Assembly (NCBI GenBank): GCA_003279685.1
Contig: QCHA01000002.1
Coordinates: 16,303 to 80,302 of the forward strand
DNA from: Pelagibacteraceae bacterium AG-390-L03
GTDB lineage: Bacteria > Pseudomonadota > Alphaproteobacteria > Pelagibacterales > Pelagibacteraceae
Length of the DNA: 64,000 nt
Direction: 5' to 3'
How positions within the stretch are numbered: the first letter of the stretch is position 1; every line of letters starts with the position of its first letter. The notes below the pieces were generated by a model that saw only the letters and a list, made by a program, of their open reading frames with translations, made no database searches and was not told the origin of the DNA. Shown here piece by piece: positions 16,004-38,586 of this stretch. The position numbers and the translations under genes are program-made.

Positions 16004-17206
16004 ATGAAAATAACTAAAATGATCTATGTTATTATGTTTTCTTCACTTCTTGGAATATTTAGCACAGCAAATTCAGGTGAATTGTGCACAGAGTGTCTAA
16101 AAAAAGTTCCACAAGAAATGAGAGACTATGTTTATAACATGGACTTTATGGATAAAGACCAACCTTTAGGACCTGCGGTAATGAAAGGATGGAAAAGTCC
16201 TAGAAAACCACCGTGGACTATTGGTTACGCTAGTACGTATGCTGGAAACACTTGGAGAAAAGGTGCAATGGAAAGATTAATGGAAGTTGTATATCCTAAG
16301 TGGAAAGCACTAGGAATGGTTGATGAGATTGTAATTACTCAATCAAACTTAGATGACTCATTACAAATTCAGCAAATGAGACAAATGATAGATGGGGGTA
16401 AAGTTGATGCAATTATTATATGTTGCTCTAATATAACTGCTCTTAACACTACTATTAAGTATGGTTGGGAAAAAGGTATACCTACATTATCATTTACAGG
16501 CTTTACAACATCTCCGTATTCAATCAACACATCTGTTAATTACAGATTAGTTGGTTACTATGTAGGTGCATGGATGGCTGAGCTTATTGGAGAAAAAGGT
16601 AATGTTATAGTTATCGAAGGAATACCAGGTTATTCTGCTTCAGACCAACAAAACAAAGGGGTACTAGCTGCGTTGTCAGAATTCCCTGATGTAAACGTTG
16701 TTGGACAACTAGCACATAACTGGACTTCGCAAGTTGCTCAAAAAGAACTGTCACAATGGTTATCAACAAATACAAAAAAAGTTGATGGTATTGCTGTTCA
16801 ATCTTCAGGAGAAACTGGAACTTTGCAGGCCCTACTTCAGTCTGGACTTGATCCAATTCCACCAATTGCATTAGGAGGAGAACTTGGTGCATTATGTTAT
16901 TGGAGACAAAACCCAGGATATATTGATGAAGCAATATATGCATGGCCTCCGGGAGATGAAGTTGAGCTAGGTATGGATGTAATGATTAGAACTTTGCAAG
17001 GTCAAAGTCCTATGATTCAGTCTATATTAGTTGGTCCAGCTACGAAAAATTTCGATGAAATCAGTGAAATCTTAAATGAAGATTGTGATCGAAATTCTAC
17101 TGGTTGGGATAATCCTGGAATGGACAAATGGGCTCCTAAAGAATACGTAGAAGCATTCTTTGAGAATCCAAGCGATCCTACAAAATACGATCCAAAATCT
17201 CACTAA
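16004..17206 (+). CDS. Ribose/sugar-type (Peripla_BP_4-like) ABC substrate-binding protein
   Basis: Signal peptide, AAGGAGGGG RBS, WTIGYASTYAGNTWR, GKVDAIII, GNVIVIEGIPG. Confidence 0.8.
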   Translation: MKITKMIYVIMFSSLLGIFSTANSGELCTECLKKVPQEMRDYVYNMDFMDKDQPLGPAVMKGWKSPRKPPWTIGYASTYAGNTWRKGAMERLMEVVYPKWKALGMVDEIVITQSNLDDSLQIQQMRQMIDGGKVDAIIICCSNITALNTTIKYGWEKGIPTLSFTGFTTSPYSINTSVNYRLVGYYVGAWMAELIGEKGNVIVIEGIPGYSASDQQNKGVLAALSEFPDVNVVGQLAHNWTSQVAQKELSQWLSTNTKKVDGIAVQSSGETGTLQALLQSGLDPIPPIALGGELGALCYWRQNPGYIDEAIYAWPPGDEVELGMDVMIRTLQGQSPMIQSILVGPATKNFDEISEILNEDCDRNSTGWDNPGMDKWAPKEYVEAFFENPSDPTKYDPKSH

Positions 17207-17221
17207 TACTTATAACTAAGT

Positions 17222-18967
17222 ATGAGTGCTGAAAAAAATATAGAAGACAACACCTCTAAAGAGGTGTTGTCTGAGAAGTCAAAAACTGTCCAAGGTGATA
17301 TTTATGTCCAAGATGTTCACAAATATTTTGGTGTGACCAAAGCCTTGAACGGAGTAAATTTCAATGCAAATTTTGGTGAAATTCATGCAATTGTTGGAGG
17401 AAATGGCTGTGGCAAAAGCACATTGGCAAAAACAATGTCTGGAGTTTTGCCAGTAGATAAAGGTAAAGTTTCAATACTTGGTCAAACTCCTACTTCCCCT
17501 GTAATGGCGAGAAACATGGGAATTGCAACAGTTTTTCAAGAAGTAATGATAGCTGAAGAGTCATCAGTAGTAGACAACTTATTTGTTGGCTCAGATGATT
17601 TTTGGTACAAAAATTTAACCCAAAGAGAAAAAGTGCTTAAAGCTCAAGAAATTATGGAAGATCTTGTTGGTGAATACGTTGATCCATATACGCAGGCATT
17701 TAATTTATCACTTCCCATAAAAGCATGGATAACAATTGCTAGAGCTTTCTTGAGAGATAATACAAAAGTATTAATTCTAGATGAGTCATCAGCTGCTCTT
17801 GATTTTGATTCCACTGAAAGATTATTTAAAAAAATGAGAGAGTTACGTGACAAAGGAGTTGCAATTTTCATTGTTACTCACCGAATTGCTGAGCTAGTAC
17901 GAATAAGTGATAAAGCAACTGTTATGAGAGATGGTAAAGATGTAGGGGTGTTAGAAAAAAAAGATCTTAATGAAAAAAATTTAATAGGCTTAATGACTGG
18001 TAGAGAAGAAACAGGAGAAAAATCCACTTCAATAGCTATGCAAACTAAAACAGATAAAGTTGTAATGAGAGCAGAAAATTTAATTGTTTGGCCAGACAGC
18101 AAACCTATCAATTTTGAAGTCAAAAAAGGAGAAATTGTAGGCATAACAGGTCTTGATGGTAATGGACAAGATGACTTTGTTAAGATTTTAGCAGGTGTAC
18201 AAGAATCTCATGGTGGGACTATTGAAATTTTAGACTCAAATGAAAAATTTTTAAAATATAATTCTTTAGAAAGTGCAAAAGAAAATGGAATATCATTTGT
18301 TTCTGGTGATCGAAAAAAAGAAGGAATACTTCCTAACTTAAGTATTTATGAAAATTTAGTTGTACCTCTTTACAAAAAAACTAGCAGAGCAGGATTTTTA
18401 GGTTTTATTAACTGGATGGAACTGAATGGAATTTATGATTGGGAAGTAGAAAGATTAAATATTAAAACTGGCCCAAGTGATAATCTAATTGGTTCACTAA
18501 GTGGAGGAAATCAACAAAAAGTAATGATAGCAAGATCATTTGCACAGCATCCAAAAGTTCTTATTTTAAATGATCCAGCAAGAGGCATAGATATAAGCAC
18601 TAAAAGAGACCTGTATGTTCATTTAAGAAAATATGTTGAAGAAGGTAACACAGTTGTTTTTTTATCAAGTGAACTAGAAGAATTTATTGGGCTATGTCCA
18701 AAAGTTATAGTTTTTAGAAATGGGACAATATTTGATATTTTTGAAAATGATAAAATTAATGCTGATACTTTACTTGAAGGAATGTTTGGTCAAACCGCTG
18801 GGGTTGGTGAAACAACTATTTCAGCTAAACCTAATGTTTCAGCAATAATAAAAAATAAAGCTGAAAATAAAACCGAACCTGAAGGAAGAAAGATTGTAAA
18901 AATAGTAAATTTTGATGATGAAAATAACAATAAGAATAATAATAAAATAAAAGTTAAAACTTTTTGA
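17222..18967 (+). CDS. CUT2 sugar ABC ATP-binding protein (two ABC domains) with a low-complexity C-terminal tail
   Basis: GGNGCGKS, LILDESS, LSGGNQQK, LNDPARGID; about 55 extra C-terminal residues. Confidence 0.88.
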   Translation: MSAEKNIEDNTSKEVLSEKSKTVQGDIYVQDVHKYFGVTKALNGVNFNANFGEIHAIVGGNGCGKSTLAKTMSGVLPVDKGKVSILGQTPTSPVMARNMGIATVFQEVMIAEESSVVDNLFVGSDDFWYKNLTQREKVLKAQEIMEDLVGEYVDPYTQAFNLSLPIKAWITIARAFLRDNTKVLILDESSAALDFDSTERLFKKMRELRDKGVAIFIVTHRIAELVRISDKATVMRDGKDVGVLEKKDLNEKNLIGLMTGREETGEKSTSIAMQTKTDKVVMRAENLIVWPDSKPINFEVKKGEIVGITGLDGNGQDDFVKILAGVQESHGGTIEILDSNEKFLKYNSLESAKENGISFVSGDRKKEGILPNLSIYENLVVPLYKKTSRAGFLGFINWMELNGIYDWEVERLNIKTGPSDNLIGSLSGGNQQKVMIARSFAQHPKVLILNDPARGIDISTKRDLYVHLRKYVEEGNTVVFLSSELEEFIGLCPKVIVFRNGTIFDIFENDKINADTLLEGMFGQTAGVGETTISAKPNVSAIIKNKAENKTEPEGRKIVKIVNFDDENNNKNNNKIKVKTF

Positions 18968-19476
18968 TGAAAACAGAGAATAAACATAAATATTATAATG
19001 ATGAAGATGAAATAAATTTTGAAAAATTAAATAATTTTAGAAAATTTAATTCTAACCTTAAAAATAATATTCAATCAAATAATCATATTATTAAGTATGC
19101 TAATTCTGATAAAAATTATTTTAATAATATTTTAAAGATTGATCAAAAAGCCACTAAATATAATGAAAATGATAAGGAAAAAGAGATAAACTATTATAGC
19201 CTATCAGACTTTCAAAAATTTGATCAACTAGATAGTTTTTCTGAACATAATAATACAGAAAAAATACAAAAAAAAATTAATCTCAAATCAAACTATTCAT
19301 CTAAAGACCATGAAGAGTTTAATAAAATAATTCCAAAAAGAAATTCAGATCAAGAAAAAAATAACGAACTAAACGAAAAAATTAGAGTAATTGATTACAG
19401 TAAAATAAATGAGAATGAAAAAAAACTTAAAAATAAATTTGGGATTGATAAAATAAAAGTAGTTTATTTTGATTAA
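18964..19476 (+). CDS. Orphan N/K/E-rich protein with four ~33-aa-periodic repeats
   Basis: Start overlaps the ATPase stop (ATGA); Y-x3-D-x3-F-x2-[IL] at aa 11, 45, 78, 111; fills the gap inside a tight operon. Confidence 0.7.
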   Translation: MMKTENKHKYYNDEDEINFEKLNNFRKFNSNLKNNIQSNNHIIKYANSDKNYFNNILKIDQKATKYNENDKEKEINYYSLSDFQKFDQLDSFSEHNNTEKIQKKINLKSNYSSKDHEEFNKIIPKRNSDQEKNNELNEKIRVIDYSKINENEKKLKNKFGIDKIKVVYFD

Positions 19477-19481
19477 AAAAA

Positions 19482-21806
19482 ATGGAAATAATTGAAAAGT
19501 TAAAAACTTATAGATCTAGTGTAGATACTTCTTCAAATAAGTATCTAATGGTGCCCATTTTTATTTTTTTTGCTTTATTAATTTTTGCTTTAATTAGAAG
19601 TCCAATACTTATCTCACAATCAGGCATAGGAAGTGCGATAATGCTTACTGCTCCTTTAATTTTAACCACTTACGCTCTAACATTTATAGCTATGGCCGGA
19701 AGAGGTGGGGTTGATTTGTCTATTGGTCCTTTCATGGGTTTTATAAATGTAAGTAGTATTCAACTATATGCTGCTGGATATTTACAAACTCCAATTGGCT
19801 GGTTTGTTTATGCAATAGCAATGGGATTAATTTGGCAGCTTTTCTATGCTTTAATAGTTTGTTTTGTAAGAGTTTCACCAATAATTGTATCTCTAGCTGG
19901 ATATTTAGCATTTGCTGGAATAAATATCGTAATTTTACCAAGACCAGGTGGAATAGCTCCGGACTGGCTGCTTCCATGGGGAGAAGGATTTACAATTCTA
20001 AACCCTATATTTCTTCTAATGATATTGGCGACAATATTATTTTATATAATTACTCATACGGCTTTTTGGGGTCATCTAAAATTAATGGGTTCAGATGAAC
20101 GTGCAGCTTTTACAAGTGGTGTAAAAATTCACCTTGTAAGAATAGTTGCTCATATGATAGCAGGAATTTTTGCAGCTCTTTCTGCAATATGTTTTACGGC
20201 TCTTGTTGGATCTGGAGACCCACTACAAGGAACTAAATACACATTACTAGGTATTACTGCATTAGTTCTAGGTGGCGCAAGTTTGGCTGGTGGGCGTGGA
20301 GGTGCGTTTGGAGCAATTTTAGGTGCATTAAACTTATACCTTATAAATTATATCTTGGTTACTTTTAGATTTGAAAGACTTCAAAGTTTTGTTTCGGACT
20401 TATCTTATGGAGCAGTTTTGGTTATAGCATTATTAGTTAGTCTTATTCTTCCTTATGTCACAAGAGTAACAAAGGGTTTATCGGTAATGGTTTTTTTCAT
20501 TTTAATGGCATTTGCAGGATTATTTGTGGTATTACATCAAGTGTATGATCAACCAATTATTATAGAGAAAGTAGTTGAAACTGATGAAAAATCTCAAAAT
20601 GATGTAAGAGGATCAAAAGTAAGAAAAGTAGATTCAACAGGAAATATTATAGTTGAGGACTCTGAAGCTGGGGCAACAACAGGAACTGGTACTGCTAAAG
20701 GTGGCTCGTTGGCAGGTCATGGCGTAGTTCAACTCACTGAAACACCAGGAACTATAGTGTTTTATGTAATTTTAGGAATAGCATTCGTTGCTTTGTTGCT
20801 TTACCTATTGTCAGCCCATAGAAATCCATCCACGATTTCTTTTGTAATTATCGTAGTCATAATGGCAGCTGGTTTAATTTTTGACCCCGACGATAAAGAA
20901 AAAGACATATTAAAAGATACAGAAAAAATAACTTTAAACTCTAAACAAGTAAGTAGTATTGAAACTTCTGCTCCTCAATACTTTAGCTTGGAAAAAATAA
21001 ACTACTTCCCAAATGTTCTTGAGAGTTCTCTTATTTCTGGAACTACTTATAGTATTATTTATTTTGCTGGAATTGTTTTGTTGGCATCTCTAATTGTAAT
21101 ATCAATGCTTCCTCAATTTAGTCCACGTACTAAATCTACAGCGCTTTTATTTTTTCTAGCAGCTATATCTTTAATTGTTTTAAAAGGTGTTTCATATAAT
21201 AATTTAGTTGAAAGCACTGATAGTAGCTTTTTTGGCATTCAGGGATATGGGGTAATACTAGTTGTTTTACTTTTATTTGTTATAACGGCTCCATTTGTTC
21301 ATTCAAAAATAAAAAACTTAACTAATGTATATATATTTGGATTTGGTATTCTTGCAATAATTTGTACTTATTTTATTGGTGGTAATACTTTTGTTCTAAA
21401 TGATCCATCTTTTTATCAACCTAAAATAATAAGTGAATTAAATATCGGAGATCTTTCTCAAATTAAATACGAAGGGACAAAAAGATTTTTTTATGAAACT
21501 GCAACTTCAGGATATTCTCAATTTGCCTTTAGTATTCTAGCGGTATTTTTAGTCCAATATTTTTTATTCCTTAATATGGGTGAGAAAGCAAATTATAAAA
21601 GATTTGCTCCATATATTTACATAGTAACTATTGCTGTAGCACTTTGGGCTTCAATATTTTATTCTGTAGGATATTCATTATATAAAATTCTTGCAGTATT
21701 AGTAATTGGAATACCTATTACACCTTTGGTTTGGCAATTTATGTCTATCTATAAAGAAAAAAATGCACGTGATAAACAATTAAGTCAATGGGAGGAAATA
21801 AAGTAG
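19482..21806 (+). CDS. CUT2 ABC permease with a ~430-aa multi-TM C-terminal extension
   Basis: GGVDLSIG, HLKLMGSDERAAFTSG, VLGGASLAGGRG in the first ~340 aa, then several additional hydrophobic hairpins. Confidence 0.8.
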   Translation: MEIIEKLKTYRSSVDTSSNKYLMVPIFIFFALLIFALIRSPILISQSGIGSAIMLTAPLILTTYALTFIAMAGRGGVDLSIGPFMGFINVSSIQLYAAGYLQTPIGWFVYAIAMGLIWQLFYALIVCFVRVSPIIVSLAGYLAFAGINIVILPRPGGIAPDWLLPWGEGFTILNPIFLLMILATILFYIITHTAFWGHLKLMGSDERAAFTSGVKIHLVRIVAHMIAGIFAALSAICFTALVGSGDPLQGTKYTLLGITALVLGGASLAGGRGGAFGAILGALNLYLINYILVTFRFERLQSFVSDLSYGAVLVIALLVSLILPYVTRVTKGLSVMVFFILMAFAGLFVVLHQVYDQPIIIEKVVETDEKSQNDVRGSKVRKVDSTGNIIVEDSEAGATTGTGTAKGGSLAGHGVVQLTETPGTIVFYVILGIAFVALLLYLLSAHRNPSTISFVIIVVIMAAGLIFDPDDKEKDILKDTEKITLNSKQVSSIETSAPQYFSLEKINYFPNVLESSLISGTTYSIIYFAGIVLLASLIVISMLPQFSPRTKSTALLFFLAAISLIVLKGVSYNNLVESTDSSFFGIQGYGVILVVLLLFVITAPFVHSKIKNLTNVYIFGFGILAIICTYFIGGNTFVLNDPSFYQPKIISELNIGDLSQIKYEGTKRFFYETATSGYSQFAFSILAVFLVQYFLFLNMGEKANYKRFAPYIYIVTIAVALWASIFYSVGYSLYKILAVLVIGIPITPLVWQFMSIYKEKNARDKQLSQWEEIK

Positions 21807-23207
21807 ATGAAAAAATCAGCATTTCTTTTTTTTAAAGGACTAGGATTATTATTTGCAATTCTTTGTGGAATAGGAACTGCTTTTCTTGGTTGGTATGATG
21901 GCGCAGATTGGATGAATATTGCTACCTACTCTATTGCTGTAACTGGATTAATATTGTGGGGATGGTACCATTTTTCTGTAAGATGGATTAATGAAGATTT
22001 AAAACAAAATATCTTCACTAAATTTCCTAAAGAAGAAATTATAAAAGACGAAGAAGATGAAGAAAATTTTTTCTTCAAAAATATTAGAGAAAATAAATGG
22101 AAAACAATTGCTTTCCTTGGGGTAATTCTAATCTTTATTTTTGTATCTTTTGTAGCAGATGATTTCTTTTCAGGAAGAACCCTAGTTTCATTTTTGATCT
22201 TTTTAGTATTTGTGATTTTTATGGGTATTATCAGCAGATACATAAAAGGTTCAAAAAGTGTTTTTGTAGGGATCTCTGTGTTGATTGGATTGTTTATTAT
22301 TGGATCTCTAACCATACCTGGTTTCTTAACAACCATGAACATGAAATCAATGTTGGTTTTCGCATCATTTTTAGGACTAGCTACTATTGGTCAGACTTTT
22401 GTTGCACTTTTAGGGGGTTTAGATCTTTCAATTCCATTTGTTATTGGCTCTATGAATGTTGGTTTAATGTCGTTAATTTCAAAAGGAGTTCCACCCTGGT
22501 TAGCATGCATAGTAATATTATTGCTAGGAGCTTTAATTGGATTTGTTAATGGAACTCTGAGTTTTAGGCTTCAGGGACAAGCATTAATTTTAACCTTAGG
22601 TGTCGGATTTTTTGTTAAAGGAGGAGTTCAAATTTTAGTCTCTATGGGAACTTTCTCAGCAGGTACAGTTTTTGGTGTAGTACCAGATTGGATGCAAAAT
22701 TTGGCCTCTATGGGAGGAAAAACTATTGGTCTTCCAATACCTCCTGTGATCATTATTTGGATAGTTGCAAGTATATTAGTTATTGTTGCACTTAGATTAA
22801 CAAAATGGGGAAGGCATTTATATGCTTTAGGTGGAAGTAGATTGTCATCATCAAGACTTTCTATTTCTGAAAGAGGATACTGGGTTGGTGCTTATGTTAT
22901 TAGTGGATTTTTCTCAGCTTTAACTGGAATTCTACTTCTTGGTTGGAGTGGTGGAGGATATGTAGGTGCTGGAGATATTTATTTATTCACAACTATAGCT
23001 GCAGTGGTTATTGGTGGAACTTCATTATTAGGAGGTTCTGGAGGTTATGGGTTAAGTGTTATTGGAGTATTTATATTACAAATAATAACAACTGTATTAA
23101 TTGGATGGGGTTTAAGTTGGGAAGCACAACAATTTATTTTAGGATTACTTATTATTCCAATGGTTGCCCTATACGCAAGATCCCCACATATAAGAAGCCA
23201 GATATAA
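21807..23207 (+). CDS. CUT2 ABC permease with a ~150-aa N-terminal TM extension
   Basis: GGLDLSIP, WGRHLYALGGS, VVIGGTSLLGGSG; extra N-terminal helices and acidic linker. Confidence 0.82.
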   Translation: MKKSAFLFFKGLGLLFAILCGIGTAFLGWYDGADWMNIATYSIAVTGLILWGWYHFSVRWINEDLKQNIFTKFPKEEIIKDEEDEENFFFKNIRENKWKTIAFLGVILIFIFVSFVADDFFSGRTLVSFLIFLVFVIFMGIISRYIKGSKSVFVGISVLIGLFIIGSLTIPGFLTTMNMKSMLVFASFLGLATIGQTFVALLGGLDLSIPFVIGSMNVGLMSLISKGVPPWLACIVILLLGALIGFVNGTLSFRLQGQALILTLGVGFFVKGGVQILVSMGTFSAGTVFGVVPDWMQNLASMGGKTIGLPIPPVIIIWIVASILVIVALRLTKWGRHLYALGGSRLSSSRLSISERGYWVGAYVISGFFSALTGILLLGWSGGGYVGAGDIYLFTTIAAVVIGGTSLLGGSGGYGLSVIGVFILQIITTVLIGWGLSWEAQQFILGLLIIPMVALYARSPHIRSQI

Positions 23208-23219
23208 AGGAGAAGATTT

Positions 23220-23939
23220 ATGATAGAATTAAATTGCGATATGGGTGAAAGTTTTGGGATCTATAAAGCGGGTAATGATGAAGAGATAATGCCATTAATA
23301 GATATAGCAAATGTTGCCTGTGGGTTTCATGCTTCTGATCCTAATCATATGAGAAAAACTGTGGCACTTGCAAAAAAACATGGGGTAAAAGTTGGTGCTC
23401 ACCCTTCTTTTTCTGATCTGCAGGGATTTGGAAGAAGAGAAATAAAAATGCCAAGACAAGATATAAAAAATATGGTTATGTATCAGGTAGGTGCTTTAAA
23501 ATCATTTTTAGATGAACAAGATATGCCTTTGAACCATATCAAACCTCATGGATCATTATATGTTATGGCTGCGAAAGATGAAAATATGGCTAACGCAATT
23601 GCAGATGCTGTTGAAACTTTTAATGTGAGTATTTTTGGAATGGCAAATACTTGTCATGAAAAGGTTTATAAAGATGAAAGAGGTTTAAATTTTATAGCAG
23701 AATTTTATGCTGACCTAGATTATGATAAAGAAGGAAACCTAGTTGTAGCTAAAGGAAAAAATGCTAACTACGATAGTAAAATTGCAGCCAAACGTGTCAT
23801 GCGTGCATTAAAAGAAAAAAAAGTTACCAATACTATTGGTAAAGATATAAATGTTGGTTGTGATACAATTTGCGTTCATTCAGATACACCTAATGCAGTT
23901 GAAATAATTACAGGTATTAAATCAGCTCTTAGTAAATGA
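23220..23939 (+). CDS. pxpA: LamB/YcsF family protein (5-oxoprolinase subunit A-like)
   Basis: LNCDMGESFG, ANVACGFHASDP, GAHPS, HIKPHGSLY, TICVHSDTP. Confidence 0.92.
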   Translation: MIELNCDMGESFGIYKAGNDEEIMPLIDIANVACGFHASDPNHMRKTVALAKKHGVKVGAHPSFSDLQGFGRREIKMPRQDIKNMVMYQVGALKSFLDEQDMPLNHIKPHGSLYVMAAKDENMANAIADAVETFNVSIFGMANTCHEKVYKDERGLNFIAEFYADLDYDKEGNLVVAKGKNANYDSKIAAKRVMRALKEKKVTNTIGKDINVGCDTICVHSDTPNAVEIITGIKSALSK

Positions 23940-26389
23940 AAAGAATTTTAATAGCTAACAGAGGTGAAATAGCTTGTAGAATTATTAAAAGCTGTAAAAA
24001 ACTAGGTATACAGTCAATTGCTGTATATTCAGATATAGACAAAAACAGCAAACACGTTAGAGAAGCTGACGAGTCAATCCACATAGGGGGGTCAAAAGCA
24101 CAAGAAAGTTACCTTTTCGCAGAAAAAATCATTGAGGTTGCTAAAAAACTAAATGCTGATGCTATTCATCCAGGATATGGATTTATGGCCGAAAATGCTG
24201 AATTTGCCCAGAATGTAATAGACTCAGGGATAATTTGGATAGGCCCAAAACCAAGCACTATCATATCAATGGGTAATAAAGATGTAGCAAGAGATTTGGC
24301 TATAAAAAATAACCTTCCTATTTGCCCAGGGTTAAAAGATGAAGATTTAAAAAAAGATGATCTAGAAAATAAATGTAATGAAATTGGTTATCCAATTTTA
24401 ATAAAGGCAAGTGCTGGTGGTGGTGGAATTGGAATGCGAATAGCAAACAATTATGAGGAATTAATTCAATCAATTGAAAAAACTAAAAATTTAGCAAAAA
24501 AAGCATTTGGTAATAGCGATATTTTTTTAGAAAAATTTATTTCAAATGCAAGGCATATAGAAATTCAAGTTTTTGGTCTTGGTGAAAGAAAAGCTTTGCA
24601 TTTCTACGAAAGAGATTGCTCAATACAAAGACGCTTTCAAAAAATTATAGAAGAAAGTCCCGCTCCTGAGATTAAAGACTCAATAATTAATGAGATGGCA
24701 GAAAGTGCAGTAAATTTTGTTACAAATCAAAAATATGAAGGAGCTGGTACAATAGAATTTATATACGACATTGATAATAAAAAATTTTATTTTTTAGAAA
24801 TGAATACTAGAATTCAAGTAGAGCACCCTGTTACAGAGATGATCACAAATTCTGATTTAGTTTCAATGCAAATCCAATTTGCATTAAACCTAGATCTACA
24901 ATCTATAGAACAAAATAAAATTAATAAATCAGGACATGCTATTGAATGTAGATTATATGCTGAAGACCCAGCTAAAAACTTTCTTCCTTCTCCAGGTAAA
25001 ATTACTAAATTAAATCTTCCTAATACTGGTTTTGTAGATATTAGACTTGATATAGGTGTAGATGAAGGAGATGAGATATCTTTTTATTATGATCCAATGA
25101 TTGCAAAAATTATTTCAAAAAGTGAAAATAGAATAGAAAGTATAAATAATATGATTCATTATTTAAGTGAATTAAAAATAGAAGGAATTAATACAAATAA
25201 ATCTTTTTTAATTTCAGTTTTAAAAAATGAGTCTTTTGAAAAAGCAACTTATAATACTAAATTTATAGAAAATAATTTATCTTTATTTACAAAAGAATCA
25301 GAAACTTTAAAAAAAAATATAAGTAAAACTATTAATGAAGAAAATATTGTTCAAAAATATACTGATAAAGATGTTGAGGCTTTTAAAAAAATCACAGCAC
25401 AATCTCCTAATAAAAAACACTCAGACCACTACACTGAAAATGATTTCAAAGCATTTAAGAATATTTTAAATAAAAAAAATGATAATCAAAAAAAAGGTTC
25501 TATTAAAAATATAATAGGAAAAGTATATGAAGAACCATTATTTAAACCAGGAGGTGACAAATATATGGTCATTGAATTTGGTAATCTTATGGATCTAGAA
25601 ATTAACTTTACAGCACAAAACTTAGCTAAAGCTATTCTTGATAATAAAATCAAAGGTATTTATGAAACTGCTCCATGTTTTGCTTCGATGCTTATTCATT
25701 ATAATCCTGATGAAATAAAATTTAATGATTTAAAAAATGAGATGAAGTCACTTATTAAGTCATTAGGTCCAACTGATGATATTGAGATTAATAGTAGAAT
25801 TTTCTCATTTCCCACTGTTTATTTAGATAAATGGACAAAAGAATGTATTGAAGATTATTCAAGCAAAATTGTAGAAAAAACTCCTGATCCTGATTTTATT
25901 GTAGAGCTAAATAAACTTGAAAATACTGAACAATTTGTAAGGGTTCATTCTGGAACTGAATATTGGGTTTCGGCACTAGGTTTTTGGCCAGGTCTTCCAT
26001 TTATGATGCCTTTAGACCCTAGATGTAAATTAACTGCACCAAAATATAATCCACCAAGAACCTGGACCCCAAAAGGTGCCGTAGGAATGGGTGGATCTTC
26101 AACTTCAATATATCCTGATAGATTGCCTGGTGGTTATCAAATTTTTGGAATAATACCTGTTCCTATTTGGGATACTCAGAAAAGTTTTTCTGTATTTGAA
26201 GAAAGTATCTGTCTTTTTAAACCTGGTGACAGAGTAAAATTTGTACCCACAAGCTACGAAGAATTTGATCATGTTTCGAATAAGGTAAAGGACAAATCCT
26301 ATGATTATAATATTATTGACTATCAAAAATTTTCAGTAAAAAATTATAAAAATTGGTTAACAACAATTGATAAAACAAAAAGATTTTAA
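23936..26389 (+). CDS. Biotin carboxylase fused to a carboxyltransferase C/D (PxpB/AHS1-like) domain
   Basis: ANRGEIACR, HPGYGF, GGGGIGM, ERDCSIQRR, EMNTRIQVEHPVTE, YYDPMIAK; ~70-aa linker; then GFWPGLPF, PKYNPPRTWTP, PGGYQIFG. Confidence 0.88.
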   Translation: MKRILIANRGEIACRIIKSCKKLGIQSIAVYSDIDKNSKHVREADESIHIGGSKAQESYLFAEKIIEVAKKLNADAIHPGYGFMAENAEFAQNVIDSGIIWIGPKPSTIISMGNKDVARDLAIKNNLPICPGLKDEDLKKDDLENKCNEIGYPILIKASAGGGGIGMRIANNYEELIQSIEKTKNLAKKAFGNSDIFLEKFISNARHIEIQVFGLGERKALHFYERDCSIQRRFQKIIEESPAPEIKDSIINEMAESAVNFVTNQKYEGAGTIEFIYDIDNKKFYFLEMNTRIQVEHPVTEMITNSDLVSMQIQFALNLDLQSIEQNKINKSGHAIECRLYAEDPAKNFLPSPGKITKLNLPNTGFVDIRLDIGVDEGDEISFYYDPMIAKIISKSENRIESINNMIHYLSELKIEGINTNKSFLISVLKNESFEKATYNTKFIENNLSLFTKESETLKKNISKTINEENIVQKYTDKDVEAFKKITAQSPNKKHSDHYTENDFKAFKNILNKKNDNQKKGSIKNIIGKVYEEPLFKPGGDKYMVIEFGNLMDLEINFTAQNLAKAILDNKIKGIYETAPCFASMLIHYNPDEIKFNDLKNEMKSLIKSLGPTDDIEINSRIFSFPTVYLDKWTKECIEDYSSKIVEKTPDPDFIVELNKLENTEQFVRVHSGTEYWVSALGFWPGLPFMMPLDPRCKLTAPKYNPPRTWTPKGAVGMGGSSTSIYPDRLPGGYQIFGIIPVPIWDTQKSFSVFEESICLFKPGDRVKFVPTSYEEFDHVSNKVKDKSYDYNIIDYQKFSVKNYKNWLTTIDKTKRF

Positions 26390-26394
26390 CTTTT

Positions 26395-27519
26395 ATGGTT
26401 CAGGTAATTAAAAAAGGTTTAGAAACATCAGTCCAAGATTATCCTGGAAGAATTGGAACTTTAAATCAAGGATTTCCAGCCTCAGGTCCAATGGATAGTT
26501 GGTCTTTTAGACTTGCAAATATATTGGTTGGAAATAAGCCTGGTGACGCAGCACTAGAGTGTCAATTTATGGGACCAACTCTTAAATTTATTGATGATAG
26601 AACAATAGCTATTACAGGTGCAGACATGTCTCCAAAAATAGATGGTAAAAGTGTTCCTTTATGGGAGAGTATTGAAGTTAAAGCAAATCAAGTTTTAGAA
26701 TTAGAATTTGCCACAATAGGTGCAAGATCATATATTGCTTTTGCTGGAGGAATTAATAGTGAACCTTGGCTTGGATCGAAATCTACATTTCATAAAGCTG
26801 GGGTAGGCGGAATTGATGGTAAAGCTATTGAAAATAATCAAATTCTGCCACTAGGAAACAATAAAAAAATTCAGTTTAGAAAAATAAAAAAAAGTTCAAT
26901 ACCCGAAATCTCTAAAGATAAAAATTGGTCTATAGAAGTTGTTTTAGGTCCCAACGATGATTGGATAGATGACAAAGGTCATGAGATTTTTTTTAATTCT
27001 AAATGGAAACTTCAAGCAAAAAGTGATCGGACAGGGTATAGATTAGATGGACCTAAACTATCTTTCACTGATAAGGCTACAAACAAAAGCCTTGAAAATG
27101 GTTCGGAACCTTCAAATATTATTGACCAGGGCTATCCTGCAGGAGCAATTAATCTTGCAGGTCAAACCCCAATTATTCTTGTTAATGATGGACCAAGCAT
27201 GGGTGGTTTTATTAACCCGTATACTGTGCCATCAGCAACTTTTTGGAAATTAGGACAAGCTAAACCAGGAGATATTCTCAATTTTATAGAAGTTTCAGTT
27301 GAAAAAGCTCAAACATTAAGAGCTGAACAGTCAATCATTTGTAGCGAAGAAAGCCTTATATCTTTTAATAAGAATGAAACTATCAAAAATGAAAAAAACA
27401 AACAATTAGACCCAATAAAGATAATAGATTTTGATAAAAATAAGACGGAGGAGAAAAAAAGAGTAAAATTGATGGAAAAAAAAGGCATGAAAAATATGAA
27501 AATTCGGTTTTTTAATTAA
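26395..27519 (+). CDS. pxpC: Carboxyltransferase A/B (PxpC/AHS2-like) subunit with a charged C-terminal tail
   Basis: VQDYPGR, SGPMD, GARSYIAFAGG, SDRTGYRL, GQTPIIL, GGF..PYTV. Confidence 0.85.
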   Translation: MVQVIKKGLETSVQDYPGRIGTLNQGFPASGPMDSWSFRLANILVGNKPGDAALECQFMGPTLKFIDDRTIAITGADMSPKIDGKSVPLWESIEVKANQVLELEFATIGARSYIAFAGGINSEPWLGSKSTFHKAGVGGIDGKAIENNQILPLGNNKKIQFRKIKKSSIPEISKDKNWSIEVVLGPNDDWIDDKGHEIFFNSKWKLQAKSDRTGYRLDGPKLSFTDKATNKSLENGSEPSNIIDQGYPAGAINLAGQTPIILVNDGPSMGGFINPYTVPSATFWKLGQAKPGDILNFIEVSVEKAQTLRAEQSIICSEESLISFNKNETIKNEKNKQLDPIKIIDFDKNKTEEKKRVKLMEKKGMKNMKIRFFN

Positions 27520-27549: not shown

Positions 27550-27768
27550 ATGACAACTGAGGTAAAAACAACAGTTCCGGGTAATATATGGAAAGTACTA
27601 GTTAAAGTAGGAGATATTGTTAAACAAAATGATGACCTTTTCATTATGGAGGTAATGAAAACAGAGGTACATCACAACTCGCCTATTGATGGAAAAGTTA
27701 TACAAGTAAATATTCAAAATGACCAAGAAGCAGTTGAGCCTGGTACAGTTGCGATTATCATTGAATAA
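27550..27768 (+). CDS. Stand-alone biotin carboxyl carrier protein
   Basis: 72 aa; PG.IWKVLVKVGD and EVMKT (biotinyl-Lys in MK), SPIDG. Confidence 0.85.
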   Translation: MTTEVKTTVPGNIWKVLVKVGDIVKQNDDLFIMEVMKTEVHHNSPIDGKVIQVNIQNDQEAVEPGTVAIIIE

Positions 27769-27771
27769 CAT

Positions 27772-27981
27772 ATGAAATCTAAAAAAAAATTTATTACTAA
27801 ATATTTAGATACTATAATTGAACTATCAAATGAAACTGGGATTTCAAAAAAAGAAGTAAGAACAATCCTAGATATAACATTATCTAATCAAAATCCTGAG
27901 TTTGTTAATTTTGAACTAATAAAAACTGAAATAAAAACATTCATTACAATTAATATTTTTTCGCTAGTGTGTAAATTATAG
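27772..27981 (+). CDS. Small hypothetical protein
   Basis: 69 aa, ATG 3 nt after the BCCP stop; no family recognised. Confidence 0.5.
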   Translation: MKSKKKFITKYLDTIIELSNETGISKKEVRTILDITLSNQNPEFVNFELIKTEIKTFITINIFSLVCKL

Positions 27982-36609: not shown

Positions 36610-38586
36610 TTATTTAGAACTTTTAGGTCCTTTAGTTGGATCATTATCAAAATTCATATGATAATCTTTTTTCGGATTTTCATAATCGCCTAAAATATTT
36701 CTAATATTACTTATTTCACCTGGTGCCATTCCAATTTCTTTAAGTAAACTATCTAAGAAAGGTTGATGAGCTCTGTAACGTAATGCAGAACTAACTACAT
36801 TGTCTGCTAAATTACCGCTTCTTGCAGATCCACCTGTACCATCAGATGCTTCTCCACCGCCTCCTCCAGTGCTGGATGTTCCGCTAAAGCCTGGCAAACC
36901 ATTAACATCAACAATTTTAATATCTCCAATGTTAGCCATTGGTTTAACACTTTCTCTAATGATTGACTCAATCTTATCAGCAAGTTTTAAACGTAATGCA
37001 CTTCTTCTACTTGCATCACTTCTAAGATTTTCAGCAGAGTTTAATGCTTCTTTACCTGCAGCATCTATCTCATATCTTAATTTTGCAGCCATAGTTGCAT
37101 GTCTATCTTGCTCAGCTCTAGATGCAGCTGTTATTACATCTACTTTTTTAATCCCTTGTGCTTTTTCAACATATCTAGCTGAATTAGCTTTTTCTTCTGC
37201 TTCTATAGCTCTAGCTCTAGAATTTTCTTCTTCAGCTTTTGATTTTAAAACCTGTTTCGACTTATTAATCACTTCAAGATTTTTTTGATGCTCTTCAATA
37301 CTTAATCTTTTAGCTTTTTCTATATCAAGAAGTCTCACTACTCTTTCAGATTCAATTCTATGTGAGTCTATATTTTTTTGTTGTTCAATCTTGGCATTTT
37401 TAACTTGTTGTTCTGAAACAATTTGAGCTTCTTCAGCCTCCTTTTGTCTTTCAGATTGTTCTTTTATAATAGCAGCTTTTTCTTGAGCTCGTTTGATATC
37501 AACTTGTCTTTGCTTTTCAAGTCTTGCATATTCACTTTCTTTATCAAGATTTAAAATTTTAACTTCTGTTTCTAAATCTTTTTGTCTTATTTCAAACGCT
37601 GAATTTTTCTCTAATTCATTTTGCTCTTTTCTTCTTTTTTCGATTTCTTCAATAAGTCTTGTTTCTGTTAATTTTCTTTCAACCTCGATAACTTGATTTT
37701 GTGAAATTTTTGCAACTTCAATTTGTTCTTGACTTCTTATTTCAGCTTCTTCTGCTTCTCTTTCTTTCTCAGCTTTTTCTTTTATTGTCTCTGTTTTTTC
37801 TTTAGCTCTTTGAATAGCTATTTCTCTTTCTTGTTGATACTTAGAAAACTCCTCATTTTTCTTAATTTCTAATTCTTTTTGAACTGTCTCTAAATTTTTA
37901 TTTTCAATTGAAATTTTTGTATCTTGAGTAATATCATTTCTCTTTTTCTTTCTCTCTTCAATTTGCTCAGTCAATTGAGTTAAACCCTGAGAGTCAAAAG
38001 TATTAGCAGGATTAAACATTTCAATCGGTGCTTGATCAAGAGAGATGATAGAAACTGTTTCAAGTGCCAATCCAGTATGCCCTATTGATTCATTTGCAAT
38101 GTTTGCAACTTGTTTAACAAATTGACCTCTATTTTCTTGTATTTCATCTAAGGTCATTTTTGCTGCAACTTCTCCAAGGGCGTCTGCAAAACGACCAGCA
38201 ACAACCTCTTTTAAATGTTCTGGATCAAGAGTTCTGTTACCTAAAGTTTGTGCTGCAGTTGATACTGCTTTAGCCTCTGGTGGAACTTTCGTAAAAAATT
38301 CTGTAACAAGTTCTGCTCTCATTCTATCTTTTGTAATTAGAGATTTGTCACCTGCTCTCTTTATATTTAGACTAAGTGTACGCATTCCTACTTGTGTAAT
38401 ATTATGAATTATAGGTAAGACAAACGCACCACCAGATATAACAACTTTTTCCCCTAACATACCTGTACGTACAAACGAAACTTCTTTTGATGATCGTCTG
38501 TATAACCAATGTAATAAGTAAACTATAATCGCAATTGCAAGTGCGACTAAAATTATACCTGCTATTATGTCTGCTCCTTTAGTCAT
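36610..38586 (-). CDS. Flotillin (SPFH domain, long E/K/Q coiled coil, Flot C-terminal domain)
   Basis: N-terminal TM, FVRTG, LITKDRMRA, NTFDSQGLT, long coiled coil, SVKPMANIGDIKIVDV. Confidence 0.92.
   Translation of the reverse strand: MTKGADIIAGIILVALAIAIIVYLLHWLYRRSSKEVSFVRTGMLGEKVVISGGAFVLPIIHNITQVGMRTLSLNIKRAGDKSLITKDRMRAELVTEFFTKVPPEAKAVSTAAQTLGNRTLDPEHLKEVVAGRFADALGEVAAKMTLDEIQENRGQFVKQVANIANESIGHTGLALETVSIISLDQAPIEMFNPANTFDSQGLTQLTEQIEERKKKRNDITQDTKISIENKNLETVQKELEIKKNEEFSKYQQEREIAIQRAKEKTETIKEKAEKEREAEEAEIRSQEQIEVAKISQNQVIEVERKLTETRLIEEIEKRRKEQNELEKNSAFEIRQKDLETEVKILNLDKESEYARLEKQRQVDIKRAQEKAAIIKEQSERQKEAEEAQIVSEQQVKNAKIEQQKNIDSHRIESERVVRLLDIEKAKRLSIEEHQKNLEVINKSKQVLKSKAEEENSRARAIEAEEKANSARYVEKAQGIKKVDVITAASRAEQDRHATMAAKLRYEIDAAGKEALNSAENLRSDASRRSALRLKLADKIESIIRESVKPMANIGDIKIVDVNGLPGFSGTSSTGGGGGEASDGTGGSARSGNLADNVVSSALRYRAHQPFLDSLLKEIGMAPGEISNIRNILGDYENPKKDYHMNFDNDPTKGPKSSK

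Follow-up and report, generated by a model that had tools for sequence, protein, structure and literature searches.

The window analysed here is a stretch of 64,000 nucleotides (contig QCHA01000002.1, positions 16,303 to 80,302 of the forward strand) from the 1.35-Mb single-cell genome of the SAR11 bacterium Pelagibacteraceae bacterium AG-390-L03, which has about 30% G+C; all positions below are window coordinates. Its plus strand carries two neighbouring operons, the first for an ATP-binding cassette (ABC) importer and the second for a urea-carboxylase-like enzyme encoded in pieces. A small repeat protein encoded in the importer operon shares a short motif with an inter-domain linker of the carboxylase, and a C-terminal tail with the importer ATPase and a carboxyltransferase subunit. 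These shared elements are the subject of this study. The genes and the linker are as follows:

16004..17206, plus strand: periplasmic substrate-binding protein (Peripla_BP_4; PF13407, E = 2.8e-38)
17222..18967, plus strand: ribose-type (CUT2-like) ABC ATPase with two nucleotide-binding domains (ABC_tran matched twice)
18967..19476, plus strand: repeat protein ("ORF170"), 169 aa, with the start set by homologs
19482..21806, plus strand: permease 1, 774 aa, a BPD_transp_2 core and an extra membrane domain of about 440 aa (Pfam covers aa 53-316 only)
21807..23207, plus strand: permease 2, 466 aa, a BPD_transp_2 core (Pfam aa 179-450) with an N-terminal extension of about 170 aa
23220..23939, plus strand: PxpA / LamB-YcsF family protein, first gene of the carboxylase operon (PF03746, E = 8e-92)
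23936..26389, plus strand: fusion of biotin carboxylase and a PxpB-like carboxyltransferase C/D subunit, 817 aa (Pfam domains at aa 2-445 and 536-749)
25280..25516, plus strand: SAR11-specific inter-domain linker of the fusion (aa 449-527), which holds the motif twice
26395..27519, plus strand: PxpC-like carboxyltransferase A/B subunit (PF02626 at aa 26-297)
27550..27768, plus strand: biotin carboxyl carrier protein (BCCP), a minimal domain of 72 aa (PF00364)
27772..27981, plus strand: protein of 69 aa at the end of the carboxylase operon (65-69 aa in the family), with orthologs in carboxylase-bearing loci

The gene for the binding protein opens an operon that is conserved in more than 40 SAR11 loci, and the whole cluster is carried by the complete Pelagibacter genome NZ_CP159823.1 (locus L043). 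According to Pfam and NCBIfam, the biotin carboxylase, carboxyltransferase C/D, carboxyltransferase A/B, BCCP and LamB/YcsF domains of the enzyme are all encoded in one operon. The ATPase and PxpC continue beyond their known domains: the ATPase has a C-terminal extension of about 55 aa (NCBIfam profiles end at about aa 519-527 of 581), and PxpC has a SAR11-specific one of about 50 aa (NCBIfam profiles stop at aa 314-344).

Helix motif and two-strand tail

The motif, here called motif A, reads Y-x3-D-x3-F-x2-[IL] and occurs four times in the repeat protein, at spacings of 34, 33 and 33 residues, and twice in the linker between the biotin carboxylase and PxpB domains, at a spacing of 24. The conservation given for the repeat-protein copies refers, here and below, to 35 aligned sequences:

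18994..19029 (aa 10-21), plus strand: motif A copy 1, YNDEDEINFEKL; Y10, D14 and F18 invariant; predicted helix 12-32
19096..19131 (aa 44-55), plus strand: motif A copy 2, YANSDKNYFNNI; Y44, D48 and F52 invariant; predicted helix 46-56
19195..19230 (aa 77-88), plus strand: motif A copy 3, YSLSDFQKFDQL; Y77 and D81 invariant, F85 nearly so; predicted helix 79-90
19294..19329 (aa 110-121), plus strand: motif A copy 4, YSSKDHEEFNKI; Y110, F118 and I121 invariant; predicted helix 112-121
25358-25393 (fusion aa 475), plus strand: linker copy 1, YTDKDVEAFKKI
25430-25465 (fusion aa 499), plus strand: linker copy 2, YTENDFKAFKNI

All six copies lie where a sequence-only reading of the window had located them. 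That reading counted from a TTG codon, so its residues 11, 45, 78 and 111 correspond to 10, 44, 77 and 110 from the true start. The latter is the ATG at 18967, the methionine at which homologs begin; it overlaps the ATPase stop codon by its A (TGATG).

Both a shuffled null and a genome-wide scan speak for a non-random origin of the motif. In 200,000 residue shuffles of the repeat protein, three or more copies never arose, two arose in 6 and one in 1205; an equal number of shuffles of the 90-aa linker gave one copy in 190 cases and two in none. Among all six-frame open reading frames (ORFs) of at least 50 aa in the 1.35-Mb genome (685,507 residues), the pattern matches 18 times in 14 ORFs, and only the repeat protein and the fusion hold more than one copy. 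Since the pattern was defined post hoc, a profile was built exclusively from the motifs of orthologous repeat proteins, with the window and all linker copies left out. Against 14,972 ORFs (1.06 million residues), this profile ranks the two linker copies first and third among the non-self matches, the sole match between them being a junk ORF of 37 aa. Two profile hidden Markov models and the pattern likewise single out only the repeat protein and the fusion in the genome, and a profile-profile comparison (hhalign) aligns motifs 3-4 of the repeat protein with motifs 1-2 of the linker at E = 4.5e-5. Repeats between motif copies at the DNA level are restricted to chance AT-rich matches, so that there has been no recent duplication or gene conversion and the likeness is kept at the protein level. 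A full-text literature search gave no account of either the motif or the repeat protein.

The second element is a two-strand tail common to the ATPase, the repeat protein and PxpC, which reads approximately hKhh[DN][FY][DS], followed after 10-20 residues by hKhx[FYT]F[DN] at the C-terminus:

18896-18916 and 18947-18964, plus strand: ATPase tail, first strand (b1) VKIVNFD and second strand (b2) IKVKTF
19381..19473, plus strand: repeat-protein tail, b1 IRVIDYS (19381-19401) and b2 IKVVYFD (19453-19473)
27415-27435 and 27496-27516, plus strand: PxpC tail, b1 IKIIDFD and b2 MKIRFFN

The ending of this tail is found in 3 of 3426 genome ORFs of at least 60 aa, namely in these three proteins, and all three have the first strand upstream. 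In the orthologs of the three proteins the first strand is nearly identical (IK[IV][IV]DF[DE]K), and the tail is conserved on them in all SAR11 loci. Within the repeat protein it is the most conserved block (71% pairwise identity), and the distance from b1 to b2 is 24 aa in 33 of the 35 sequences. Neither the tails nor the linker gave a meaningful family or structure match in Pfam (E <= 10), NCBIfam or a PDB profile search. A flotillin gene on the minus strand 9 kb downstream (36610-38586) encodes a weakly tail-like strand, IKIVDV, that fails the tail pattern used.

Conservation and predicted structure

The motif residues are almost completely conserved in the repeat protein. Over the four copies in 35 sequences, the tyrosine is present in 140 of 140 instances, the aspartate and the phenylalanine in 139 each, and the isoleucine or leucine in 137. 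The invariant columns comprise most of the twelve motif tyrosines, aspartates and phenylalanines (the others exceed 90%) as well as F24, I121 and the tail. With overall identities down to 30%, the 16 key positions are on average 96% identical between pairs of sequences, compared with 34% for the spacers, whose lengths are held (33-34, 30-36 and 33-36 aa) though their sequence drifts, with indels. The linker displays the same pattern: its only invariant columns between aa 449 and 527 are Y475, D479, F483, I486, Y499, D503, F507 and I510. Every genome locus with the fusion keeps both linker copies at the fixed 24-aa spacing, and at least 119 of 120 metagenome orthologs retain both by the scan used, while the segment upstream of the copies varies in length and sequence among lineages. 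The motif is thus conserved while its flanks drift, on which the sequence-only reading had made its own proposal depend. We conclude that motif A is genuine and non-random, and that strong purifying selection maintains it. A short conserved island inside a fast-evolving, low-complexity context is moreover what characterises short linear motifs.

We also considered that the motifs might be a compositional accident of an AT-rich genome whose proteins are rich in N, K and E, or that the repeat-protein ORF might be non-coding. The low complexity, the low G+C content and the definition of the pattern after it had been seen would all be compatible with such an accident. The shuffles, the genome scan, the ortholog-only profile and 432 homologs of conserved length, however, all speak against it, as do motif residues that stay invariant where overall identity has fallen to 30% and the lack of any DNA-level repeat between copies; we regard its probability as negligible. 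A chance origin of the motifs is excluded by the shuffles, the genome-wide scan, the profile test and the homologs.

The repeat protein appears to lack a compact fold. AlphaFold, run with the family alignment, gives a predicted template modelling score (pTM) of 0.19 and a mean predicted local distance difference test (pLDDT) of 61, and places four isolated helices, each beginning two residues after the motif tyrosine, among disordered spacers and a disordered tail. Means over blocks of 10 residues reach about 66-82 over the motifs and 51-57 in the spacers. By prediction, the protein thus combines the lack of a stable globular fold with local helix propensity, as is usual for proteins that carry short linear motifs. 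With 62% of its residues being K, N, E, D, Q or S, it also looks as disordered and multivalent as the sequence-only reading had supposed. The N-capped amphipathic helix that this reading had proposed is likewise borne out: 82% of the copies have N, S or T at +1, aspartate stands at +4 in 139 of 140, and the predicted helices start at +2. An N-cap residue together with an aspartate at N3 forms the classical capping box. The phenylalanine, the isoleucine or leucine and the hydrophobic residues that follow fall on one helix face, in the amphipathic pattern F, I/L, I/L, F at i, i+3, i+4 and i+7. The motifs are accordingly lineage-specific, confined to these proteins, and predicted to be helical within a non-globular protein.

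These properties bear on two alternative views of the repeats. The tyrosines, aspartates, phenylalanines and isoleucines could form a core of their own, in a folded helical-repeat or regulatory subunit, or could fold on the ATPase, in which case the likeness to the linker would reflect a shared descent by duplication instead of a partner in common. The period of 33-34 aa does resemble that of TPR or Sel1-like repeats, the spacer lengths are conserved, and the two-motif unit aligned by hhalign would fit a duplication. On the other hand, each repeat contributes only one helix to the model (pTM 0.19) and the helices do not pack, unlike those of an alpha-solenoid, and a match to a repeat family is lacking even at E <= 10. 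The spacers are 34% identical, of low complexity and subject to indels. That the eight key residues are the sole invariants in a linker between independent domains would be difficult to account for if they served no function themselves, and we therefore consider a folded subunit improbable.

Alternatively, the motifs could be lipid-binding amphipathic helices and the tail a lipid-binding hairpin, both anchoring the protein at the inner membrane. The amphipathic pattern and the lysine-rich composition of the protein as a whole are in line with this idea. The motif segments themselves, however, are neutral to acidic and very hydrophilic (mean net charges of -2.8, +0.7, -0.4 and -0.6; mean hydropathy -0.9 to -1.2), which is not the basic amphipathic helix of the MinD or FtsA type, and known membrane-targeting helices do not have such a neutral to acidic, hydrophilic character. 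Lipid-binding helices further tolerate exchange among hydrophobic residues, while the near-absolute invariance of tyrosine, aspartate and phenylalanine points to a specific protein site. Membrane anchoring is very unlikely in our view.

Family, lineage distribution and co-inheritance

The repeat protein had been called an orphan in the sequence-only reading, which proved wrong. It belongs to a SAR11-restricted family with 432 homologous metagenome clusters at 90% identity (E <= 0.01), nearly all with lengths of 168-171 aa. At the 50% level there are 54 representatives, each of the same family or an assembly chimera of it, and the protein is found in 47 species-level SAR11 genomes. No meaningful match was obtained in Pfam (to E <= 10), NCBIfam or a PDB profile search. 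In seven metagenome entries (P0029, P0134, P0138, P0149, P0158, P0165, P0173), fragments of the repeat protein are joined to unrelated enzymes, among them an exonuclease and a nucleotidyltransferase; as the partners are random, the joins seem to stem from chimeric assembly and not from natural fusion.

Wherever a locus is long enough to tell (more than 40 loci), the gene is located between the ATPase and permease 1. Its product is 34-99% identical across loci, compared with 79-100% for the ATPase, and thus evolves much faster than its neighbours. In about 24 loci (L039, L041, L042, L045, L048-L050, L053, L054, L062, L063, L065-L072, L074, L075, L080, L081) it is in frame with permease 1 and separated from it by one stop codon and 1-5 further codons; in the window the two genes are out of frame, so that read-through is no conserved feature. 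The fusion and PxpC genes share a frame in one locus (L061). In one genome (G566, C3:14847-22021), the genes for the repeat protein and the fusion each contain an internal TGA, which could reflect decay of the system as a whole or an error in sequencing.

Comparison with other Alphaproteobacteria bears on the origin of these elements. In the orthologous operons outside SAR11, the PxpB domain is 58-67% identical, biotin carboxylase and PxpB are separate genes without a linker, and the PxpC orthologs stop about 50 residues earlier, without a tail. The linker with its two motifs, the PxpC tail, the ATPase tail and the repeat protein are therefore all additions specific to SAR11.

Co-occurrence was counted in a fixed sample of 401 genomes of the family, 174 of them of high quality. 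Seven of the 401 encode the repeat protein; six of these also have the extra domain of permease 1 and the seventh is cut by the contig end, so that both co-occur in six of six assessable genomes. The fusion is present in four of the seven and in one more genome, whose contig begins at the carboxylase operon. Of the 174 high-quality genomes, four combine the repeat protein, the extra domain and the fusion, and a partial set of one or two of these does not occur; the fusion is found only alongside the importer and the repeat protein. A protein that is encoded within an ABC importer operon, at the same position throughout and with a start overlapping the ATPase stop, and that is strictly co-inherited with the importer, has the characteristics of an accessory subunit.

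Several further features of the two operons deserve mention. Both permeases (19482-23207) bear large SAR11-specific extra membrane domains. Permease 2 is conserved across SAR11 loci, 300 other alphaproteobacterial genomes lack any homolog of the extra domain of permease 1, and permease 1 begins with 22 strongly conserved residues (K.YRSS.DTSSNKYLM). The BCCP consists of a biotinyl domain alone, without tether or linker, which is unusual for a multi-subunit biotin enzyme, and its gene shares the reading frame of PxpC, with 10 codons between them. The 69-aa protein has an invariant hydrophobic C-terminus (TF[IL][TV]IN[IM]F[SF]L[IV]CKL) and an "LS.E.G[IM]S" segment, and no family match in NCBIfam; it could be a tail-anchored or a regulatory partner, or could lie outside the system altogether. 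A contig labelled as a metagenome-assembled genome of Flavobacteriales (L039, PAKE01000017.1) carries a complete SAR11-type cluster at 87-97% identity and is probably mis-binned SAR11.

Possible coupling of importer and carboxylase

Taken together, the sequence patterns suggest that the motifs are part of an undescribed docking code tying the importer to the enzyme. The repeat protein would be a disordered multivalent adaptor of the importer, and the carboxylase would have acquired its docking motifs as well, resulting in importer-enzyme coupling, an interpretation to which we give an even chance. Protein binding by the motifs, the partner concerned and the coupling itself are what we infer, and the following scenario is conditional on them. 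The repeat protein may serve a SAR11-specific ribose-type ABC importer as an accessory subunit that is conserved, evolves fast and is intrinsically disordered, displaying four evenly spaced N-capped helix motifs (Y-[NST]-x-x-D-x3-F-x2-[IL]) and the two-strand tail as docking elements. The neighbouring urea-carboxylase-like enzyme, on entering the system, would have gained the same elements, with two motifs in the linker between biotin carboxylase and PxpB and the tail on PxpC; the ATPase also bears the tail. Importer and carboxylase could then be held together or clustered, either via a shared receptor or via each other, and the imported substrate would thereby meet its enzyme at the membrane. 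Candidate receptors are the tails, the ATPase and the SAR11-specific domains of the permeases.

Some observations weigh against this interpretation. Four species (L064, L073, L075, L080) keep the importer and the repeat protein, with its four motifs and its tail, without the carboxylase operon. In their loci, permease 2 is directly followed by the lactonase-like and Fe-ADH (iron alcohol dehydrogenase) genes, which in the window follow the carboxylase operon. The genomes behind three of these loci have only a distant stand-alone PxpB, which is also present in carboxylase-bearing genomes, and the fourth has no match. Coupling to the carboxylase can therefore be neither the sole nor the original role of the repeat protein. 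As to the structural models, the single-chain model of the repeat protein leaves the tail disordered and has no intramolecular packing of helices and tail, and that of the fusion (mean pLDDT 39.8) is too poor to judge docking in cis, its alignment of 38 sequences at 72-96% identity being probably too shallow. Even at this low confidence, helices are placed at the linker motifs (477-488 and 501-511), in agreement with the result for the repeat protein.

The strict co-occurrence with the importer and the persistence without the enzyme imply that the repeat protein belongs to the importer and that the carboxylase is an optional addition. This also changes the role first proposed for the repeat protein. 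The sequence-only reading had seen in it a multivalent scaffold, comparable to the short-motif linkers that organise cargo in carboxysomes or pyrenoids; the co-occurrence ties it to the ABC importer instead, and all motifs are kept in the four species that lack the carboxylase. A condensate or compartment scaffold, with the repeat protein phase-separating with the carboxylase or packaging it as EPYC1, CsoS2 and CcmM do with Rubisco, would be compatible with four evenly spaced motifs in a disordered K/N-rich chain of net charge about +7.6, with a conserved valency and with a client enzyme that bears the same motif twice. A motif repeated in a disordered chain (four copies) and recurring in its client (two copies) is indeed the layout of this class of scaffolds. 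The genome, however, has no gene for a bacterial microcompartment (BMC) shell protein (PF00936) or an encapsulin (PF04454), and the repeat protein, encoded and co-occurring with the importer, does not depend on the cargo. It has no homology to known scaffolds in Pfam, NCBIfam or PDB either. The multivalent layout shared with a client thus stands, the missing shell and encapsulin genes do not fit, and the carboxysome or pyrenoid comparison is retained as a working analogy only; a scaffold of this kind we judge unlikely.

The motifs could also act as a regulatory plug that gates the ATPase or the permeases, with the carboxylase linker competing for the site; beyond a mere tether, transport would then be tuned to whether the enzyme is present or to its state. 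The evidence for docking would serve this reading equally, the repeat protein is translationally coupled to the ATPase (TGATG), and the unusual extra domains of the importer could be regulatory targets. Four copies at fixed spacing nevertheless exceed what a plug needs, and its probability is further lowered by the fact that we know of no precedent in ribose-type importers. We consider a plug quite unlikely.

Returning to the adaptor, a more specific but rather doubtful version of it would regard motif A (helix) and motif b (strand) as complementary parts of a single recognition code, pairing 1:1, by which the dedicated disordered adaptor would assemble a stoichiometric supercomplex of importer and carboxylase. 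The counts agree: there are six copies of A (4 + 2) and six of b (a pair in each of the three tails, of the ATPase, the repeat protein and PxpC), and without the carboxylase four of each. If this pairing is true, the system would be a bacterial transport metabolon made from short motifs, which an enzyme joined once it had acquired a linker and a tail.

Motif-mediated protein networks have been mapped extensively in eukaryotes and carboxysomes and hardly at all in ordinary bacterial metabolism. Here a streamlined genome devotes about 170 codons to a disordered protein, and further sequence to linkers and tails on three enzymes, and keeps a few motif residues nearly invariant across lineages that are down to 30% identical overall. 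If tethering is true, the two operons would provide a compact genetic example of the coupling of transport and metabolism in the most abundant marine bacteria, and the motifs a minimal portable docking pair for engineering.

Among known systems, EPYC1 with its Rubisco-binding motif, CsoS2 and CcmM are alike in being disordered proteins with evenly spaced helical motifs that recur in their partners, with the valency kept and the spacers drifting. In contrast, the present system involves neither Rubisco nor a shell, has no sequence similarity to these proteins, is located in an ABC importer operon, persists without the enzyme and is known from its sequence only. The encapsulation peptides of BMCs and the cargo-loading peptides of encapsulins are likewise short amphipathic helices or C-terminal tags on unrelated co-operonic enzymes with poorly conserved linkers; here a PF00936 or PF04454 gene is lacking and the motif is present four times in a dedicated protein.

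Rv1747 of Mycobacterium tuberculosis is similarly an ABC transporter with a cytoplasmic disordered multivalent module for higher-order assembly, and clusters via a disordered regulatory linker and FHA domains. It differs in using phospho-threonine and FHA domains within one chain, instead of a separate protein, helix motifs with strand tails and a metabolic enzyme as client. The F-x3-W-x2-L motif by which p53 binds MDM2 has the same hydrophobic anchors at i, i+4 and i+7 on a short inducible helix, and the docking domains of polyketide synthases and nonribosomal peptide synthetases also give partner specificity between separately encoded proteins by a short terminal helix or hairpin. Sequence, organism and partners are different in both cases, and the receptor domain in SAR11 is only a candidate.

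The nearest concept found in the literature is the AccE tether of the mycobacterial carboxylase (PMC13012033), a small accessory protein that holds biotin-carboxylase subunits on a larger assembly. The comparison is one of concept: AccE is part of the carboxylase, whereas the small protein of SAR11 belongs to the importer and exists in species without the carboxylase.

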